Origin: Daejeonella sp.
Lineage (GTDB): Bacteria > Bacteroidota > Bacteroidia > Sphingobacteriales > Sphingobacteriaceae
DNA: 64,000 nucleotides
Direction of reading: 5' to 3'
NCBI RefSeq assembly: GCF_044348475.1
Contig: NZ_JBIKSU010000004.1
Coordinates: 7,602 to 71,601 of the forward strand
This document shows, one piece after another, positions 14,168 through 60,764 of the stretch (its first letter is position 1; every line of letters starts with the position of its first letter). The position numbers and the translations under genes are program-made. The notes beneath the pieces were generated by a model. That model saw only the letters and a list, made by a program, of their open reading frames with translations. It was not told the origin of the DNA and did not search any database.

Positions 14168-15046
14168 ATGAACAAATACCTCAGGCAAGCACTAGATTTT
14201 TTATTGTATAGCAATATTTTTATTGCTTTATGTGCAGTATCTCAGGGTTTGGTTACTTACTGGCTTGTAGAGGCCAAACCAGATACGTGTGTATTAGGTC
14301 TTTTATTCTGCTCTACCCTGGCTCTCTACAATTTTAGTATACTGCTTTCAAAACCTGAAAAACCAGAGATTTCGAGATTCCAAAGAGTTAGATGGATATT
14401 TTCACATTATCGGCTAATGATCACCCTGACCATCATTTCATCGATTGCAATAATCCCATTAAGCTTTTTTTTAAATACTTCTTCCAACATACTTCTAATT
14501 GGATTGGGTCTTATATCTATTGCTTATAACCTGCCCATTTTTTCTATTGATGATACGCGATTTAGCCTTCGCAATATTCCCGGAGTAAAGCTTTTTATTA
14601 TTGCTATGGTTTGGGCAGCAAGTTGTGTGCTACTCCCAATCTTTGAAATAGCAGGGAATAATTCTTCAACAATTACACTAAATGAAACGATACTATTATT
14701 TTTAAAGCGATTATTCTTCATTGCAGCTATTGCTGTTCCATTTGATATACGAGATATTTTTCAAGATAAAAGCAACCAGTTGAAAACCATTCCCGTAATT
14801 TTTGGTGAAAAAAATTCATTACTGATATGCCAGGTATTACTAGCAAGCTACCTGTTATTATTGTTTAACTTTACTAAAAAGATTGACGGAAATTTCTTTG
14901 CACTTAGCCTAACCATCCTATTGTCAGGCTGGCTTATTTTCAAATCGAAATGGAAGAAAAATGAATATTATTATTTTCTTTTACTGGATGGAACAATGAT
15001 ACTCCAATTAATTATGCTACTCATTTTTAGTACTATTCCATTATGA
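14168..15046 (+). CDS. UbiA-prenyltransferase-like polytopic membrane protein
   Basis: 292-aa ORF with about 8 TM helices and an Asp-rich loop (PFDIRDIFQDK) resembling the second UbiA motif. The family assignment is tentative. Confidence 0.5.
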   Translation: MNKYLRQALDFLLYSNIFIALCAVSQGLVTYWLVEAKPDTCVLGLLFCSTLALYNFSILLSKPEKPEISRFQRVRWIFSHYRLMITLTIISSIAIIPLSFFLNTSSNILLIGLGLISIAYNLPIFSIDDTRFSLRNIPGVKLFIIAMVWAASCVLLPIFEIAGNNSSTITLNETILLFLKRLFFIAAIAVPFDIRDIFQDKSNQLKTIPVIFGEKNSLLICQVLLASYLLLLFNFTKKIDGNFFALSLTILLSGWLIFKSKWKKNEYYYFLLLDGTMILQLIMLLIFSTIPL

Positions 15047-15702
15047 AAAACATTGATATTATTTCCATAAACATTCTTGGCAAAGCTGAGCTTTTGTTAT
15101 CAGATCATCAAAAAGCGATGACAGCATTTAGAAAAATAGCCATACAAACTGAAGGGATTGAATTAGAACTTACAGGTTTTTTAGGCGACATGGTCAAGAA
15201 TACTAAACACCACGGAGGAAACGATAAAGCAATATGCTGCTATAATGCCGACCATTTTGAGAAATGGAAAAATGAGCTGGGATTCGACCTAAAACAGGGA
15301 GCATTTGGCGAAAACCTGACCTTAAAAGGAGAAAATGCGCATGAGCGCCATGTTTATATCGGCGACCGATATCAATTAGGCGAGGCCATAGTAGAAGTAT
15401 CAGAACCACGCGGACCATGCTATATGATTGGCATCAGGTATAACTATAAAGAATTTCCAGTGCATCTTCAAACATCAGGGCTTACCGGCTATTACCTAAG
15501 AACAATCCAACCGGGCTTTGTTAAAAAAACTGACCAATTGGTCTACCTGAGTTCACACCCTGAAAAGATATCTGTCATGGATGTGAACTATGTACGCTAT
15601 CACGATAGCGAAAATAAGGAATGGATACAACGCTTAGTTAATTTGAAGGAACTGACTGAAGATTGGCGGATGATGTTTGAAAAGAAACTCGTCAAATTAT
15701 AG
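15043..15702 (+). CDS. MOSC domain protein (YiiM-like)
   Basis: 219-aa ORF with HHGGNDKAI and EPRGPC motifs typical of MOSC. Its start overlaps the upstream stop (ATGA). Confidence 0.8.
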   Translation: MKNIDIISINILGKAELLLSDHQKAMTAFRKIAIQTEGIELELTGFLGDMVKNTKHHGGNDKAICCYNADHFEKWKNELGFDLKQGAFGENLTLKGENAHERHVYIGDRYQLGEAIVEVSEPRGPCYMIGIRYNYKEFPVHLQTSGLTGYYLRTIQPGFVKKTDQLVYLSSHPEKISVMDVNYVRYHDSENKEWIQRLVNLKELTEDWRMMFEKKLVKL

Positions 15703-50955: not shown

Positions 50956-52536
50956 ATGAAAACAATATTTCTATTGGGTTCTATATTTTTTTGCTCATTT
51001 GTTGTAAATGGACAAACAATAGCAGACCTGCTTATTCGAAATGGAAAAATTTATGACGGTACAGGAAATTCCTGGTATTATGGTGATTTGGCAATAAAAA
51101 ATGGCAGAATTATCAAAACCGGACATATAGCTGATATGCAGGCCAAAAAGACCATTGATGCCAAAGGCTTGATCGTGGCACCTGGTTTTATTGATGTTCA
51201 TGGGCATATTGAAGGGGGTATTACTGAAACTCCCACAGCTAATAACTATATTTTTGATGGCGTAACAACAGTTATTACTGGCAATTGTGGAGGGTCGGCT
51301 GAAAATATTGGCTCTTTTTTTCAAGAAATCAATACAATCAGGCCTTCTATTAATGTTGCCACTCTATTCGGGCATAATACCGTTCGAGCACAAGTCATGA
51401 ACAGAGATAACAGAACTCCCACAAATCTGGAACAGAAAAAGATGGAAAGTCTGGTAGAACAAGCAATGAAACAAGGTGCTGTTGGTTTGTCTACAGGATT
51501 AATCTATATCCCAGGTACATTCGCCAAAACGGAAGAGGTTAGCGGACTGGCTAGGGCAGCAGGAAAGTATAAGGGTGTTTACGCATCTCATATCCGGAAT
51601 GAGGAAAATAAAGCAGTTGATGCTATTAATGAGGCAATAAATATTGGTAAAGAAGCAAATATTCCTGTACAGATCTCTCACTTTAAGATAGGTGGTAAAT
51701 CAAATTGGGGCAAATCAAACATTACCCTTGGCTTAGTAAAACAGGCGCGCCTTGACGGTTGGGATGTTACGATCGATCAATATCCATACACCGCAAGCAG
51801 CACGAATCTGGGAATACGATTACCAGACTGGGCGTTTGCAGGCGGAAACGATAGCATGAAGGTACGTTTGAACAACCCGCTTGTAAGAGCTCAGATCAAA
51901 AAAGAAATGTTGCAGCAGTTAGCCAGCTATAAATTTCCTAATTACAGCTATGCAGTTGTTGCCAACTATCCTTCAGACACCACTTACAATGGAAAGAATA
52001 TCTCTGAAATTAATAAACTGATGGGAAGAAGGGCAAAAGTTAAATTTGAAGCCGAGACCATTATGGATATGGTTGAAAAAGGAGGTGCCCAAATGGTCTA
52101 TAATAGCATGAATGAAGCCGATGTGAAAAATATCATGCAATATCCATTCAGTATGTTTGGTGCTGATGCTGGTGTTCCTGTACCAGGGCGCGGAATGCCA
52201 CATCCACGTGGATATGGTTCTAATGCAAGGGTTTTAGGCAAATATGTCAGAGATGAAAACGTACTTTCCATGGAGGATGCTATTCGGAGGATGACCTCAT
52301 TAGCTGCACAAAAATTCGGGTTAAATGATAGAGGCCTGTTACTCGCAAATTACGCTGCTGATATCGTGATATTCAGCGAATCAGAAGTAACCGACATGGC
52401 TACCTTTCAAAAACCACATGCTTACTCTAAAGGGTTTAAATATGTAGTTGTGAATGGTGAGTTAGTGGTTGAAAACGAAAAACACTTAGGTACCAGAAGT
52501 GGGAAAGCGTTGTATGGGTTGGGGTATGTGGAGTGA
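50956..52536 (+). CDS. N-acyl-D-amino-acid deacylase (D-aminoacylase) family amidohydrolase
   Basis: Started at the ATG at 50956 (MKTIFLLGSIFFCSFVVNGQ signal peptide). Metal motif GFIDVHGH is present, with the D-aminoacylase-like layout. The TGA stop lies inside the first heptad of the downstream repeat array. Confidence 0.85.
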   Translation: MKTIFLLGSIFFCSFVVNGQTIADLLIRNGKIYDGTGNSWYYGDLAIKNGRIIKTGHIADMQAKKTIDAKGLIVAPGFIDVHGHIEGGITETPTANNYIFDGVTTVITGNCGGSAENIGSFFQEINTIRPSINVATLFGHNTVRAQVMNRDNRTPTNLEQKKMESLVEQAMKQGAVGLSTGLIYIPGTFAKTEEVSGLARAAGKYKGVYASHIRNEENKAVDAINEAINIGKEANIPVQISHFKIGGKSNWGKSNITLGLVKQARLDGWDVTIDQYPYTASSTNLGIRLPDWAFAGGNDSMKVRLNNPLVRAQIKKEMLQQLASYKFPNYSYAVVANYPSDTTYNGKNISEINKLMGRRAKVKFEAETIMDMVEKGGAQMVYNSMNEADVKNIMQYPFSMFGADAGVPVPGRGMPHPRGYGSNARVLGKYVRDENVLSMEDAIRRMTSLAAQKFGLNDRGLLLANYAADIVIFSESEVTDMATFQKPHAYSKGFKYVVVNGELVVENEKHLGTRSGKALYGLGYVE

Positions 52537-52798
52537 GGTAAGAAGTGTGTTGTCTGTTGTCTGTTGACTGAGGTAAGAAGTGTGTTGTCTGTTGTCTGTT
52601 GTCTGTTGACTGAGGTAAGAAGTGTGTTGTCTGTTGTCTGTTGTCTGTTGTCTGTTGACTGAGGTATGAAGTATGAAGTATGAAGTATGAGGTAGGAGGT
52701 CTGAGGTAGGAAGGAAGGGAAGGGGTGTTGTCTGTTGTCTGGCTATCGTACCCATCCTGATAACTGATAACTGATAACAGATAACAGATAACTGATAA
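52531..52798. repeat. Heptanucleotide-periodic tandem array filling a convergent intergenic gap
   Basis: 30 in-register heptads span 52531-52740. They form the unit [gaNtgag gtaagaa gtgtgtt (gtctgtt)n] with n=2, 3, 4, followed by gtatgaa-type variants and (gttgtct)x2. A 16-nt unique spacer follows, then 6 heptads ctgataa/cagataa (52757-52798). Confidence 0.95.
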
Positions 52799-52804
52799 CT
52801 CACC

Positions 52805-53590
52805 TTAAAACCGAATAACAAAATCTTCTTTTGCCTGTGCTTTTCTGACGAATACCAGTCCGATTTGAAAAAGATCAAAAGTTACACTGACTTCTGGATG
52901 TGCTTTAATTTGTTCCCAGGCATCTTTCATGTCCTGACTCCTGTAAATATTATCAACTATCAGTATTGATTCCTCGCTTAGCTTTGGTAAACACCACCTA
53001 AAATAGTTCAGAATAGCTTCTTTAGGATGTTTGCCATTTATTAATACGAAATCAAGTTCAGTAATATCTTTAATGACTTCTGGAAACAACTCATCAAAAT
53101 TCCCAACAAGGAGTTCTAAATTTTGAATATTGAGCTTATCAAGATTTTCATGCGTAATTTCTGCTGTTTCAGGATACCTCTCTAAACTAATAATCTGAGC
53201 ATTTGGCGCTGCTTTTGCAAGGTATGCTGTGGTAATACCTAAGCAATTACCCAATTCAATAATAGTTGACGGATTTACATCTAAAACAAGGCGATGAATG
53301 AGCTGATCTAGCCTGGCAGGCTTTAAACTATTCCTGGCAAATGTGCTAATCTTCTTTTGTTTATTCTGGTTAAGAAGTGAACCAACTCCAAGATCAGTGA
53401 TAGGTATACTGCGCACATCAAGGAATAATTCAGACCGTAATTTCTCAATGTCAGAATAAACCTTTTTGGCATGAAAATCATAAATAACTTGATCAACCAG
53501 ACGGTAGGCAAAGGGTGAATGTACGCCATGCCGCGTTTTGGCTTTCAATCGATATTTAAGGAAATCAACCGCCACTTGGAGATTTATCAT
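52805..53590 (-). CDS. class I SAM-dependent methyltransferase (O-methyltransferase-like)
   Basis: 261-aa ORF with a motif I-like IIELGNCLGITTAYLA and an acidic residue after the beta-2 strand (ISLE). Confidence 0.72.
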   Translation of the reverse strand: MINLQVAVDFLKYRLKAKTRHGVHSPFAYRLVDQVIYDFHAKKVYSDIEKLRSELFLDVRSIPITDLGVGSLLNQNKQKKISTFARNSLKPARLDQLIHRLVLDVNPSTIIELGNCLGITTAYLAKAAPNAQIISLERYPETAEITHENLDKLNIQNLELLVGNFDELFPEVIKDITELDFVLINGKHPKEAILNYFRWCLPKLSEESILIVDNIYRSQDMKDAWEQIKAHPEVSVTFDLFQIGLVFVRKAQAKEDFVIRF

Positions 53591-53610
53591 GGGGCTAAAG
53601 ATAGTTTTCA

Positions 53611-53645
53611 GATGTGAGATCTGAAATATGAGATTTGAGATAGAA
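53611..53645. repeat. Short heptad array in a divergent promoter region
   Basis: Five heptads: gatgtga gatctga aatatga gatttga gatagaa. They are flanked by an imperfect inverted repeat, ggctaaag (53593-53600) / cttatagcc (53650-53658). Confidence 0.8.
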
Positions 53646-53706: not shown

Positions 53707-54591
53707 ATGAACGAAAAAGAAGTACAATCTCTTATAAAATTGCTCGATGACCCGGATGTTGAAATATCCAGTCACGTGGAAGAAAAGCTCTTGTCTATTG
53801 GCAATGAGGTGATTGGCTATCTGGAAAATGCCTGGTCACATTCTTTAGATGCAATGCTTCAAGAGAGGATTGAAAATCTGGTACACAAGATCCAGTTTAG
53901 TAATGTAAAACGAGAACTCGAACTTTGGTATATCTCAGGATCATACGACCTTTTGCAGGGAATGCTAATCATCAATAAATATCAATACCCAGACCTAGAT
54001 GAACAGAAGATAATCAATCAGATCGAAGATATTAAAAGGGATATCTGGATGCAGTTGATTTATGAAATGAGTGCGGTTGAAAAGGTGAAGATAATCAATC
54101 ATGTAATCTATGAAACTCATGGATTTTCAGGCAATACTAGCAACCATCAGGATCCTCAGAATTCATACCTAAGTCAGGTATTGGAAAGTAGAAAAGGAAA
54201 TCAGATCCTACTGGCAGTAATCTATTCGATTATTGCGCAAAAACTCGATATTCCCATCTATGGGGTTAACCTACCGCAGCATTTTGTGCTGGCCTATGTG
54301 GATGAAGAACCAGCAGAACATAACATTAATTCGGAAAACGATTTCGAAAATCGCATCTTATTTTATATTAATGCATTTAATAAAGGTTTTCTTTTTGGAA
54401 GAAAAGATGTGGATGGATTCTTAAAACAACTTAATCTCAAACCTCAGCATCATTTCTATGAGCCTTGCAGTAATGTTGAGATTATTCAGCGGGTACTTCG
54501 AAACCTCATCAGTGCTTATGAAAAGCTATCATCAGTAGAGAAAGTTGCTGAAGTTCAAGAGATGCTGGGGATTTTTCCGGAACCGAGATAA
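53707..54591 (+). CDS. transglutaminase-like / SirB1 (UPF0162) family protein
   Basis: 294-aa ORF. A central region (NSYLSQVLESRKGNQILLAVIYSIIAQKLDIPIYGVNLPQHF) matches my memory of the transglutaminase-core-2 pattern. Moderate certainty. Confidence 0.55.
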   Translation: MNEKEVQSLIKLLDDPDVEISSHVEEKLLSIGNEVIGYLENAWSHSLDAMLQERIENLVHKIQFSNVKRELELWYISGSYDLLQGMLIINKYQYPDLDEQKIINQIEDIKRDIWMQLIYEMSAVEKVKIINHVIYETHGFSGNTSNHQDPQNSYLSQVLESRKGNQILLAVIYSIIAQKLDIPIYGVNLPQHFVLAYVDEEPAEHNINSENDFENRILFYINAFNKGFLFGRKDVDGFLKQLNLKPQHHFYEPCSNVEIIQRVLRNLISAYEKLSSVEKVAEVQEMLGIFPEPR

Positions 54592-54603
54592 GGGAGGGGG
54601 GAA

Positions 54604-54966
54604 GGTTATAGGTAATAGGTTATAGGTTATAAGTAATAGGTTATAGGTAATAGGTAATAGGTTATAAGTTTAAAGCTGAAAGGGGGAAGCTGAAAGGGGA
54701 AAGCTGAAAGGAGAAAGGCAGTTGTCTGTTATCTGTTGTCTGAGGTATGAAGTATGAGGTCTGAAGCAGAATCTATATCCCAATACTCTATACTCACTAC
54801 TCAATACTCAAAATCTGTTGTCTGTTATCAGTTGTCTGTTGTCTGAAGCAGAATCTATATCTCAATACTCAAAATCTGTTGTCTGTTATCAGTTGTCTGT
54901 TGTCTGAAGCAGAATCTATATCTCAATACGCTATACTCACTACTCACTACTCAAAATCAGTTATCA
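54604..54966. repeat. Mosaic heptanucleotide-periodic array with an embedded 61-bp tandem duplication
   Basis: 30 in-register heptads span 54604-54813, in families ggttata/ggtaata, agctgaa/aggggaa, tgtctgt/tatctgt, ggtatga/agtatga and ctcaata/ctcacta. A 61-bp unit follows at 54810-54870 and repeats at 54871-54929 (identical over 59 nt). A partial copy of that unit lies at 54760-54788. Confidence 0.95.
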
Positions 54967-55005
54967 GATTTTGGGAAATAGAATAAATTTCAAATTAGCA
55001 CTGAA

Positions 55006-55096
55006 TTGTCTTGGTTCTTTGCTCTTGGTTCTTTGTTCTTTACTCTTTACTCCTTGTTCTTTTGTCTTGGATCTTGGTTCTTGATACTTGGATCTA
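55006..55096. repeat. Heptad array (NNNTCTT on plus strand = AAGANNN on minus strand) abutting the prfB stop codon
   Basis: 13 in-register heptads: ttgtctt ggttctt tgctctt ggttctt tgttctt tactctt tactcct tgttctt ttgtctt ggatctt ggttctt gatactt ggatcta. They end 1 nt before the prfB TAG (55098-55100). Confidence 0.9.
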
Positions 55097-55097
55097 A

Positions 55098-56175
55098 CTA
55101 AAATTCCATCAAATAAGCCTTCAAAAATTCATCTAGATCGCCATCAAGAACTGCCTGAGCATTAGATGTTTCATAATTTGTGCGCAGATCTTTCACCAGT
55201 TTATATGGATGTAGCACATAATTCCGAATCTGTGAACCCCATTCTATCTTCTTCTTATTTCCCTCAATGGTTGCTGAAGCTTCTTGACGCTTACGCATTT
55301 CTGCCTCATAAAGCTGCGATTTTAATAGTCGGATAGCATTCTCTTTATTCTGAAGCTGAGAACGTGATTCCTGATTTTTAATGATAATCCCAGATGGTTT
55401 ATGATATAAACGAACGGCGGTTTCTACCTTATTCACATTCTGACCTCCAGCACCGCCAGAGCGGAAGGTTTCAAATTCAATATCTGCCGGGTTAACATAA
55501 ATCTCAATGGTATCATCTACCAATGGGTACACATACACTGAAGCAAATGAGGTATGTCGCTTTGCATTCGAATCAAAAGGTGAAATTCTAACCAACCTAT
55601 GAACACCATTCTCGCCTTTTAAATACCCATAGGCAAAATTACCTTCAAATTGTATGGTTACAGTCTTGATTCCAGCTACATCGCCTTCTTGATAATCTTG
55701 TTCACTAACCTTAAATCCATGCTTTTCGCCCCACATAACATACATTCTGAGTAGCATAGCTGCCCAGTCGCAACTTTCGGTACCTCCAGCCCCGGCAGTA
55801 ATTTGCATCACCGCATTCAGCTGATCTTCTTCAGAACTGAGCATATTTTTGAACTCTAGCTCTTCTATCTTTTTAACTGTAATATCAAATTGCTCCTTTA
55901 GTTCAGATTCTGTGGCATCTCCAGATTGGAAAAAATCGAGCATGACAGTAACATCTTCAACGGATGCTTCCGCAAGTTGGAACTCATCGGTCCATTTTTT
56001 CTTAGTGTTTATTGAATGTAATGCTTTTTCGGCCTCCTTAGGGTCATCCCAGAAATCGGGTCTCAGGGCAATATCCTGTTCATTTTTGAGATCATCTAAC
56101 TTCTTGTCGATGTCAAAGATGCCTCCTCAGAGACGTTATTCTGTCTCTTAAATCCTGAATATTTTCTTTGGTCAT
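55098..56175 (-). CDS. prfB: peptide chain release factor 2, expressed via a programmed +1 frameshift
   Basis: Frame 0 runs 56175..56116 ([20 protein letters not shown]) and ends at an in-frame TGA (56115-56113). After a +1 shift, 56114..55098 reads [30 protein letters not shown]... into the track ORF (MLDFFQSGD...). SPF and GGQ ([11 protein letters not shown]) motifs are present. The product is about 358 aa. Confidence 0.95.
56113..56127 (-). promoter_or_regulatory. prfB +1 frameshift site with an internal Shine-Dalgarno-like stimulator
   Basis: The minus strand reads AGGAGG CAT CTT TGA C. This is the canonical CUU UGA C slippery/stop context, with an SD-like AGGAGG 3 nt upstream. Confidence 0.9.
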
Positions 56176-59073: not shown

Positions 59074-60735
59074 ATGCTTCCCCGCCATAATTTAACTTCA
59101 ACAGATACATTCAAAGCCCTTTCTGACCATTTCAACAGGATCAAAAAGGAGAAAATAATCGATCTATTCAAGGATAATACACGATTTAAACAATTTTCAA
59201 TCACCTTCGGAGATATTTTACTCGATTACTCTAAGAATAGAATCAATTCAGAGACCCATGAGCTATTATTGAAGCTAGCCAAAGAATGTGAGTTGAAACA
59301 AGCCATTGAAGCTATGTTCAGAGGTGAAAAGATAAATGAAACTGAAGGAAGGGCAGTTTTACATACCGCATTACGTAACCCAAACCATTCGGGTTTTAAT
59401 CTGGAGGGTAAAGATATATTAGCTGATATTCATCGAGTTTTAACTAAAATGGAACTGTTTTCTGACCGGGTGATTGGCGGGCAATGGAAAGGTTATACGG
59501 GCAAAGCAATTACTCATATTGTGAATATTGGCATTGGCGGCTCGGATCTAGGACCCGTTATGGTAACTGAAGCACTAAAAGCCTACAGGAATCATATAAA
59601 ATTACACTTCGTTTCAAATGTGGATGGCTCTCATATCGTAGAAACACTTAAAGAACTTGATCCGGAAACTACCTTATTCATGATTGCCTCCAAGACATTT
59701 ACTACCCAGGAGACTATGGCTAATGCCTATTCTGCTCGCAACTGGTTTCTAAAAGGTAGCGCCGCAGAAGAAGATGTGGCCAAACATTTTGTGGCCATCT
59801 CAACTAATGAGCAAGAAGTTTCAAAATTCGGGATTGATACGGCTAATATGTTTGAATTCTGGGATTGGGTTGGTGGAAGATATTCGCTTTGGAGTGCCAT
59901 CGGACTCAGCATAGCCTGCGGTATCGGATATTCCAATTTTAAGGCTTTATTGGATGGTGCACATGATGCCGATGAGCATTTCAGAAATACAGACTTTGAT
60001 AAAAATATTCCGGTAACGCTGGCACTTCTAGGTGTTTGGTACAGCAATTTTTTTGGTGCTGAAAGTCATGCGATTTTACCATATGATCAGTATATGCATC
60101 GCTTTGCTGCCTATTTCCAGCAGGGAGATATGGAAAGTAATGGAAAATCAACTGACCGCAATGGTATGGCTATCCACTATCAAACTGGTTCAGTGATTTG
60201 GGGTGAGCCAGGCACTAACGGACAACATGCTTTCTTTCAACTCATACATCAAGGCACTAAACTTATTCCTTGTGATTTTATAGCACCCGCTCAGAGCCAT
60301 AATCCAATTGGAAATCATCATCAGTTACTCTTATCTAATTTCTTTGCTCAGACTGAAGCTTTAATGAATGGCAAAAGTAAAGATCAGGTTGTGGCTGAGC
60401 TGAAAGCTGCCGGAAATACTGAAGATGAAATAAAAAACCTGGCGCCATTCAAGGTTTTTGAAGGTAATAGGCCTACCAATTCGATACTGATAAAAAAAAT
60501 CACACCCCATACTTTAGGTTCGCTTATCGCGATTTACGAACATAAAATATTTGTTCAGGGTATAATATGGAACATTTTTAGTTTCGATCAGTGGGGTGTT
60601 GAGCTAGGCAAGCAACTGGCAGGGCGTATTTTGCCAGAGTTGAAAGATGAACAAGCGGTTACTGGGCATGATGCTTCAACTAATGGCTTGATCAATCAGT
60701 ATAAGGTTTGGAGGGAAAGGAAAGGGGAAAGCTGA
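59074..60735 (+). CDS. pgi: glucose-6-phosphate isomerase
   Basis: 553-aa ORF with PGI signatures ([41 protein letters not shown]). The last ~6 codons and the TGA lie inside a heptad repeat. Confidence 0.95.
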
Positions 60736-60764
60736 AAGCTCAAAGCTGAAAGGGTAAAGGGCAA
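60716..60764. repeat. Heptad array (agNNNaa family) spanning the pgi 3' end and the entire convergent gap
   Basis: Seven heptads: aaaggaa aggggaa agctgaa agctcaa agctgaa agggtaa agggcaa. This is the same agctgaa/aggggaa family as 54674-54715. Confidence 0.85.

Follow-up and report, generated by a model that had tools for sequence, protein, structure and literature searches.

The 64,000-nucleotide stretch of contig NZ_JBIKSU010000004.1 from Daejeonella sp. analysed here (the window) contains two convergent genes, a Transglut_core2-family gene (53707–54591, + strand) and prfB, encoding release factor 2 (RF2; main open reading frame (ORF) after the +1 frameshift at 55098–55943, − strand), and the subject of this study is the 506-bp spacer between them, which was found to be filled with a patchwork of 7-base tandem repeats (heptads). 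The Transglut protein showed 98% amino acid identity to that of a metagenome-assembled genome and 95% to that of D. rubra DSM 24536, in agreement with a host in Daejeonella, Sphingobacteriaceae. No ORF of at least 50 amino acids was present within 54592–55097, and the array is therefore non-coding and enclosed between two stop codons.

Directly 3′ of the Transglut_core2 stop codon (ending at 54591) lies a G-rich leader, gggaggggggaa (54592–54603, + strand, as for the features that follow unless otherwise indicated), whose G-run length differs among strains. When the sequence downstream was cut into 7-mers, the thirty consecutive heptads in one frame from 54604 to 54813, and the five unit families (flavours) into which the initial annotation had divided them, were reproduced exactly. 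Flavour 1 (GGTTATA/GGTAATA/AGTAATA, 54604–54673) comprises 10 units including the junction unit agtttaa; it has 8–10 units in strains and is absent in strain L087. Flavour 2 (AGCTGAA/AGGGGAA, 54674–54722) comprises seven units including the junction unit aggcagt, arranged as a 14-nt super-unit, and is followed by the three units of flavour 3 (TGTCTGT/TATCTGT/TGTCTGA, 54723–54743). Flavour 4 (GGTATGA AGTATGA GGTCTGA AGCAGAA, 54744–54771) resembles, in phase, flavours 1, 2 and 3, and flavour 5 (TCTATAT CCCAATA CTCTATA CTCACTA CTCAATA CTCAAAA, 54772–54813) is G-free with 31% C.

Two copies of a 61-bp unit follow at 54810–54870 and 54871–54931, each built of a 5-nt stub 'tctgt' at its start, heptads of flavours 3, 4 and 5, and a final 'ctcaaaa', that is, eight heptads plus the stub (61 = 8 × 7 + 5). 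The head-to-tail duplication is real, with 60/61 positions agreeing between the two copies and an exact match of 69 nt at lag 61; Tandem Repeats Finder (TRF) reported the corresponding period-61 repeat at 54800–54929 (2.1 copies, 100% matches, score 260). A partial third copy was likewise confirmed by the occurrence of tctgaagcagaatctatat at 54760, 54842 and 54903. Further downstream are a run of the flavour-5 tail (CTATACT/CACTACT, 54932–54957) that terminates in 'ctcaaaa', a small A/U-rich hairpin CAAAATC-agttatca-GATTTTG (54952–54973, strand not assigned) whose left arm CAAAATCTG also opens each 61-bp unit (54809, 54870), a conserved non-repeat core cagattttgggaaatagaataaatttcaaattagcactgaattgtc (54965–55010), and a (CTTGGTT/CTTTGCT/CTTTACT)n run (55009–55095). 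The latter adjoins the prfB stop codon and is purine-rich (CAAGAAC-type) on the minus strand, i.e., in the prfB sense. The extent of 54592–54966 first proposed for the array is too short at its end, the repeats continuing to the prfB stop (55098). TRF detected arrays of period 7, 14 and 21 across 54603–54953, with period-7 scores up to 109. In the whole window, 722 nt lie in lag-7 arrays and 0 nt in lag-5, 6, 8 or 9 arrays, and the heptad array is therefore not due to chance.

Variation between strains was analysed in contigs encoding an identical Transglut protein, with flanking genes 98.6–100% identical at the DNA level. Spacers in this set range from 359 to 560 bp (506, 445, 359, 409, 462 and 560 bp), and the 506-bp spacer was recovered base for base as in the window in four independent assemblies. 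The comparison of strains for gain or loss of the 61-bp unit, as proposed in the initial annotation, gave a positive result: the 445-bp spacer of L093 has lost exactly one unit, the second copy, and the sampled flanks of this strain are 99.9–100% identical to the window. The 359-bp spacer of L087 has one 61-bp unit fewer and no GGTTATA run, its remaining 86-bp deletion not being a multiple of 7. Spacer lengths thus vary among near-identical strains, mostly by 7n or whole-block steps, and the pace of change in the array therefore greatly exceeds that of point substitution. In the metagenome contig L090 (1976–2200), ten units of the GGTTATA run lead into an unrelated gene (DUF7133/HEAT/cytochrome c) where the remainder of the spacer and prfB would be expected; the junction is either an array rearrangement or a chimeric assembly.

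The neighbouring convergent spacer, with an array at 52.5 kb, showed a similar polymorphism, with lengths of 268, 277, 352 and 434 bp among strains and a core-plus-CTTGGTT module present or absent. Three strains with about 99% identity to the window (L084, L086 and L092) have a module of aagaagtagaaaatttcaaattagtcctaaaagtc followed by a (CTTGGTT-type)n run, in one or two copies, in this spacer (52537–52804 in the window). The window has aggaagggaagggg alone at that site, so that a core-like element is polymorphic here for presence and absence.

In sister species, whose flanking genes show 92–94% nucleotide identity, the order of the flavours is kept and every copy number is changed. The AGCTGAA run (flavour 2) measures 42, 7, 70, 7 and 21 nt in relatives, all multiples of 7, and the CTTGGTT run 83 versus 76 nt. 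There are 1 to 4 composite units per spacer, and their spacings (82, 61 | 73, 73 | 52 | 73, 66) differ by 7 or 21 and by one 2-nt AT slip. Indels between relatives were nearly all 7n. Arrays at the same positions are present in the isolates D. rubra DSM 24536 and D. lutea DSM 22385 and in related species.

The initial annotation had considered the conservation of register across unrelated unit sequences as the unusual property of the array. A single register was indeed found from 54604 to 54813, but it ends there, the 5-nt stub breaking the frame within the array. Because each 61-bp unit carries this stub (61 = 8 × 7 + 5), recurring flavours lie in three different phases across the whole array: for identical 7-mers more than 28 nt apart, the distance modulo 7 was 5 for 142 pairs, 3 for 73, 0 for 46 and 1 for 2. 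The AT slip also acts on the frame: where the window has 'tctatatccc', two strains (L084, L092) and three species (L001, L005, L081) have 'tctatccc', and their flavour 5 is displaced by 2 nt. At one junction of two tandem arrays, 'register' depends largely on the phase chosen for the second unit, and the non-trivial question is whether flavours resemble each other in phase. Similarity in phase between flavours was modest, shift 0 being the best of the seven shifts for 5/10 run pairs, and the observed phasing of the flavours ranked in the top 1.5% of 2401 possible phasings (3.7% without junction units); a modest in-phase resemblance is what in-place diversification predicts. In a toy model with heptad slippage and point mutation, at least five multi-unit runs arose in 35–59% of simulations, their units differing at up to 6–7 positions and being always in register by construction. 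Register preservation is accordingly no better than simple slippage yields. In view of the internal frame breaks, the 2-nt slip in relatives, the 7n indels and the toy model, we reject the idea that register is under selection; a shared register is a consequence of the way heptad repeats grow.

The claim that the unit families recur elsewhere in the window proved correct, an 18-mer being common to the focal array (54740) and the 52.5-kb array (52659) and a 19-mer to the focal array (54692) and the 60.7-kb array (60720). Two spacers of L004 that lie 6 kb from each other (Transglut/prfB and pgi) have in common a 32-nt composite and the junction ataagtaaggagctgaaagg. In the pgi spacer of the same locus (15040–15330), AGGGGAA/AGCTGAA and AGTAATA/AGTTATA heptads extend over about 250 nt and form a 119-bp (17 × 7) higher-order repeat; blocks of higher order are thus 61 bp in the focal array and 42 and 119 bp in related arrays. 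To the left of the core (54965–55010; GTAAATTTCAAATTAGCAC..AATTGTC) lie TCTGTTATCAG heptads, and to its right CTTGGTT heptads. The core occurs once in the 64-kb window and is tandemly multiplied in L002, L004 and L006, with 1 to 4 tandem copies in the Transglut/prfB spacer across genomes; L002 and L006 have it in the amidohydrolase/methyltransferase convergent spacer as well, and an unrelated metagenome locus (L083) also contains it, so that at least three different spacers carry it across genomes. The shared 18- and 19-mers, the L004 junction and the recurring core support the view of the arrays as related, partly dispersed elements and not independent microsatellites. A highly dispersed repeat the core is not, with one copy in 64 kb and exact matches in three metagenome contigs. 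RNAalifold on 16 core copies gave 0 pairs, and hence no conserved RNA structure. Promoters of the Bacteroidetes type follow the consensus TTTG ... TAnnTTTG, to which no convincing match was seen by eye in the core.

To place the focal spacer in its clade, 80 related loci (L001–L080) were compared, of which L001–L030 represent the Daejeonella clade. Lag-7 arrays were present in 27/30 of the latter and in almost none of L031–L080 (other Sphingobacteriaceae). Five Mucilaginibacter loci (L054, L057, L067, L068 and L072) contain octamer arrays, (GATGTGCA)n with its complement and (CAACTTTT)n, and not heptads. The repeat period thus seems to be lineage-specific, 7 in Daejeonella and 8 in Mucilaginibacter. 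In Pedobacter glucosidilyticus, GAGTATT/GAGTAGT/GCGTATT heptads were observed upstream of the Transglut gene (L066, 7874–7987; L074, 7930–7968); they are the reverse complement of flavour 5 (CTCAATA/CTCACTA/CGCTATA), and the Transglut protein of this species is only about 68% identical.

Over the window and L001–L030, arrays occupy 37/78 convergent, 15/72 divergent and 8/169 tandem spacers, and in the window itself three of the five convergent spacers and none of the tandem ones. Of the possibility raised in the initial annotation that the arrays are hypervariable and randomly distributed, only the first half applies (359–560 bp); placement is not random, convergent spacers being favoured. Arrays typically start at, or a few bases from, a stop codon, and of 70 arrays starting beside a stop codon, 64 are rich in purines on the sense strand of the adjacent gene, with G exceeding C on that strand for only 50/70. 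Synteny of the Transglut gene and prfB is conserved, with spacers of 39 to 562 bp. In distant Daejeonella species the same convergent spacer forms a long hairpin, with purine-rich heptads after the + strand gene and their reverse complement before prfB. The units of the arms differ by species (CAAGAAC, AGGAACA, AGACGTG-AGATATG, AAGTATC), and both arms change together. For distant Daejeonella, 14 spacers were folded, every one with z between −3.6 and −8.8. Arm lengths are frequently unequal (about 10 vs. 6 units in L011, 4 vs. 9 in L029), and each arm therefore seems to expand (slip) independently.

Compared with dinucleotide shuffles, the focal spacer itself showed no gain in folding stability (z = +0.15 for the + strand, +1.64 for the − strand), and the 61-bp unit is without structure (z = −1.1 and +0.07). 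The 9-bp A/U hairpin at 54952–54973 was weakly notable (z about −2.4 to −3.0) and has a perfect 9-bp stem and a 4-nt loop in L001 and L003. The z values of +0.15 and +1.64 rule out a single large hairpin or a bidirectional terminator spanning the focal spacer; such a structure holds in sister species and, on the + strand, partly in the 52.5-kb array, where the (TGTTGTC)n end pairs with the (CAGATAA)n end via G·U pairs on the + strand only (z = −3.97). No relevant Rfam match was obtained in the arrays at E ≤ 1, a consensus scan for intrinsic terminators (G+C-rich stem-loop followed by a U-tract) found none in any array, and no known promoters were found in the arrays. By reading, G-tracts in the focal array are confined to 54592–54601, 54683–54687 and 54697–54700, 9–80 nt apart, which excludes G-quadruplex potential (at least four G-tracts of at least three G). 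On the minus strand, the RNA of 54592–54722 (flavours 1 and 2) contains 37% C and 3% G, has a minimum free energy of −1.3 kcal/mol over 131 nt and is rut-like in composition, facing prfB read-through; the plus-strand blocks 54772–54813 and 54922–54957 contain 31–33% C and 0–3% G.

We consider the focal feature best explained, with a probability somewhat better than even, as a slippage-driven, hypervariable modular heptanucleotide satellite, i.e., a mosaic long simple-sequence repeat (LSSR), that fills a convergent spacer, has a probable descent from a 3′-end hairpin and has no flavour-specific function. Mutation in 7-nt steps, gain and loss of blocks, sharing between spacers, the bias in placement and orientation and the hairpins of sister species are all direct observations. 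The 7-nt steps and block changes would be caused by slipped-strand mispairing or unequal recombination, and new flavours would arise from point-mutated units re-amplified in place, a process that would keep a common frame automatically until a non-7n indel occurred. The ancestral state may have been one of heptad-armed bidirectional 3′-end hairpins between convergent genes, which, by analogy with repetitive extragenic palindromic (REP) elements, would likely act as terminators, insulators or mRNA stabilisers. The array probably descends from such a 3′-end hairpin, which in the window lineage would have been overgrown by direct repeats; the focal array would therefore probably lack a flavour-specific function. 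Its persistence is most likely due to the tolerance of convergent spacers for such sequence, and it would serve at most as a spacer or insulator.

Several points weigh against this interpretation. The purine-sense rule and the enrichment in convergent spacers are not predicted by neutral slippage and hint at a constraint at the transcript level. The loci are orthologous, and the spacer counts are thus non-independent samples. Slippage leaves a period of 7 here versus 8 in the Mucilaginibacter loci without explanation. Flavours as different as GGTTATA and CTCAATA need many steps of mutation and re-amplification, or import, and their in-phase similarity is modest. Finally, short-read metagenome assemblies can collapse or mis-join tandem repeats, and copy numbers in single strains (e.g., L093) may be artefacts.

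It is conceivable, though unlikely, that the strict period (7, or 8 in Mucilaginibacter) reflects a lineage-specific factor that builds and maintains the array architecture, either a single-stranded RNA or DNA binder taking one unit per monomer or a peculiarity of replication or repair. Such a factor would maintain the purine-rich sense strand, the abutment on stop codons, the mirrored arms and the species-wise replacement of units, and the arrays would then be evolvable, copy-number-tuned 3′-end or anti-antisense modules, a Bacteroidota heptad counterpart of REP elements.

Another explanation, which we also consider unlikely, takes the heptads as a platform for a single-strand nucleic-acid binder that covers about 7 nt, such as a cold-shock-domain protein, the arrays being tunable 3′-untranslated-region or antitermination elements in which copy number sets occupancy. 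The strict period 7, the strand rule relative to the adjacent gene and the position of the arrays beside stop codons are consistent with it, and binding of S1, Csp or CsrA was proposed for TAACTGA repeats by MacGregor (PMC4679880). B. subtilis CspB prefers the heptamer GTCTTTG/T (PMC1904285); GTCTGTT, GTCTTGG and TTCTTTG are one mismatch from this consensus, and the arrays contain 20 one-mismatch matches versus 4.1 in shuffles. However, exact matches number 0, the enrichment, which counts one repeated unit many times, is a weak lead, and most flavours (GGTTATA, AGCTGAA, CTCAATA) are unlike the CspB motif. Units are, moreover, wholly different between species at the same spacer, and whole runs are dispensable in L087, whose sampled flanks are 99.9–100% identical.

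The mosaic could also be a cluster of small mobile or gene-converting extragenic elements, similar to bacterial interspersed mosaic elements (BIMEs) and REP sequences or to miniature inverted-repeat transposable elements (MITEs), the spreading unit being the core with its flanking heptad runs. The core is found with heptad flanks in the Transglut/prfB spacer, in the amidohydrolase/methyltransferase spacer (L002, L006) and in L083; strains with about 99% identity differ in whether they carry the core-plus-CTTGGTT module, and composite junctions recur in more than one spacer. Against this, there is only one core in the 64-kb window and variation consists mostly of in-place changes in copy number. 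No terminal inverted repeats surround the array, the only inverted pairs in 54560–55130 being CAAAATCTGTTGTCTG versus CAGTTATCAGATTTTG, inside the array, and this absence speaks against a MITE-like element; target-site duplications were not evident at the junctions, judged by reading only. No transposase is linked to the arrays, none being found among the eight array-flanking genes (50.9–61.9 kb) scanned against Pfam, a scan that included no search aimed at transposases or REP-associated tyrosine transposases. This explanation, too, we regard as improbable. REP/BIME membership as judged by fold is not supported (focal z = +0.15/+1.64), the 9-bp A/U hairpin being the only one present.

Rho suppresses antisense transcription and favours C-rich, G-poor, unstructured RNA. 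The arrays might accordingly be barriers to convergent antisense read-through, their antisense strand providing a pyrimidine- and C-rich, G-poor, unstructured Rho loading (rut-like) region, an explanation with which the composition of the near-unstructured minus-strand RNA of 54592–54722 (37% C, 3% G) and of the plus-strand blocks (31–33% C) is in agreement, as is the concentration of arrays at convergent spacers. The antisense GTTCTTG of the commonest family in the clade, CAAGAAC, does not have C in excess of G, however, and the sense strand has G in excess of C in only 50/70 arrays; the pyrimidine arm would be sequestered in the hairpin-type spacers, and the 7-nt period is left unaccounted for. 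We therefore consider this alternative very doubtful, and it fails for the commonest CAAGAAC family as a general explanation. That the mosaic or the 61-bp duplication is an artefact of short-read assembly is hardly credible, for although tandem repeats are error-prone in metagenomes and L090 joins the GGTTATA run to an unrelated gene, four independent assemblies give the 506-bp spacer base for base, and D. rubra DSM 24536 and D. lutea DSM 22385 carry arrays at the same positions.

Three further arrays of the window were characterised. The sister mosaic array at 52.5 kb (52538–52805, + strand) lies in the convergent amidohydrolase/methyltransferase spacer and consists of a 42-bp (6 × 7) unit TGTCTGT/TGACTGA/GGTAAGA/AGTGTGT, then a GGTATGA run, then (CTGATAA)n. 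Its (CTGATAA/CAGATAA)n portion at 52757–52799 is a TAACTGA repeat with variants (exact doublet 52761–52774) and adjoins the stop codon of the minus-strand methyltransferase gene. A 130-amino acid ORF (52486–52878, − strand) runs across this array and is almost certainly spurious, arising from stop-free repeat units. Upstream of the Transglut gene, the divergent spacer holds a (GAGATNT)n array (53610–53642, + strand); this array keeps both its place and its unit family in L001, L003, L004, L006 and L008–L015 at 75–94% nucleotide identity, unlike the convergent-spacer arrays, and it is possibly a promoter or 5′-untranslated-region element.

The AGCTGAA/AGGGGAA array at 60716–60764 (+ strand) overlaps the 3′ end of pgi, a gene that converges with one for a glutaminyl cyclase. 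In pgi (59074–60764 in the window), the heptad array encodes a variable C-terminal tail, and the TGA of AGCTGAA is the stop codon. Among the 3′ ends compared (window, L001, L003, L004, L013, L019 and L024), the tails after the conserved ...NQYK(V/A)WR vary by species: ERKGES*, GEG*, GEGER*, GERGKGKAES*, TKLKGELS* or none.

In prfB, the programmed +1 frameshift site of RF2, 'AGGAGG cat CTT TGA C', was located at about 56102–56120 on the minus strand, and it explains the N-terminal part missing from the main ORF (55098–55943). The Shine-Dalgarno-like AGGAGG of this site is thus kept in a Bacteroidota genome.

Reports of heptanucleotide arrays go back decades and come from scattered bacterial lineages (Nostocales, Microcystis, Xanthomonas, Burkholderia, Beggiatoaceae and some Bacteroidetes), without an accepted function or a reason for the period of 7, and no account of such arrays in Daejeonella was found in the literature searched. 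Daejeonella is a well-sampled freshwater lineage in which the same spacers can be traced from strains, differing in copy number, to sister species, differing in counts, and to distant species, differing in units but alike in their mirrored hairpins. Together with the orientation rule and the contrast between periods 7 and 8, this series of spacers makes it testable whether the arrays are a mutational by-product or a selected 3′-end element, the clade-wide architecture and the 7-versus-8 contrast being leads rather than results. In practice the message is modest: the register is not special, and the focal array is a natural strain marker resembling a variable-number tandem repeat (VNTR).

Among the known systems, the short tandemly repeated repetitive (STRR) sequences of cyanobacteria share with the focal array intergenic tandem heptanucleotides with several unit types per genome, hypervariable and usable for strain fingerprinting. 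Mazel et al. reportedly described, in 1990, STRR1 (CCCCAGT), STRR2 (TTGGTCA) and STRR3 (CAACAGT) in Calothrix/Nostoc. No tandem of STRR1–3 was found on either strand, and the host is Daejeonella and not a heterocystous cyanobacterium, which excludes membership in this Nostocales family. Cyanobacterial STRR heptamers are also mentioned in PMC4692102, and regulatory effects have been suggested for heptamer repeats in Nostoc (10.1101/2022.06.06.494920).

TAACTGA repeats are 'often mixed with others' in Microcystis (MacGregor 2015, PMC4679880). Repeats of this type were recognised in the sister array at 52757–52799 and not in 54592–54966, the focal array having single TTATCAG units only; in Beggiatoaceae they lie just upstream of start codons, whereas the arrays here lie between the stop codons of convergent genes. 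The same source describes mixed heptamer assemblages in Cyanobacteria and Bacteroidetes, the larger ones being intergenic and from Gramella, Aequorivita and Elizabethkingia, and it records indels of 7 nt that distinguish strains (PMC4679880).

Enterobacterial REP/BIME sequences resemble the arrays in being extragenic, enriched at 3′ ends and between convergent genes, mosaic in their modules and variable among strains, and REP hairpins act both as terminators and as mRNA stabilisers (10.64898/2026.03.23.713779). They provide the best functional analogy for the heptad-armed hairpins of sister species, but REP units are palindromes of about 35 nt and not 7-nt tandems, and the focal array is non-palindromic and without an exceptional fold. 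Satellites with higher-order repeats and minisatellite VNTRs likewise have runs of monomers in larger blocks that are gained or lost whole, with copy-number polymorphism among near-identical genomes, although the focal array is small (hundreds of bp) and lies in a bacterial intergenic spacer.

The focal array belongs to the known, functionally unexplained class of heptanucleotide LSSRs, having 7-nt tandem units (the class is defined by units of 5–11 nt) in runs beyond chance length, length polymorphism in unit steps among relatives and an intergenic location. Some bacteria have an excess of heptameric simple-sequence repeats, which form inverted pairs and differ in length at the same spacers in close relatives, and polymerase slippage has been proposed as their origin (PMC4692102); the heptanucleotide LSSRs of Mrazek 2007, as summarised in PMC4679880 and PMC4692102, include the GGGAATC arrays of Xanthomonas. 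The focal array has in common with these LSSRs the preference for 7-nt tandems over other periods, the intergenic location at the same spacer in relatives and the variation in length and sequence; frequent inverted pairs on opposite strands, an unexplained function and a proposed origin by slippage are also shared traits. It differs from them in its occurrence in Bacteroidota, in the many unit families per array in place of one dominant G-rich unit, in being without G-quadruplex potential, and in the presence of blocks of 61, 42 and 119 bp and of a conserved non-repeat core.

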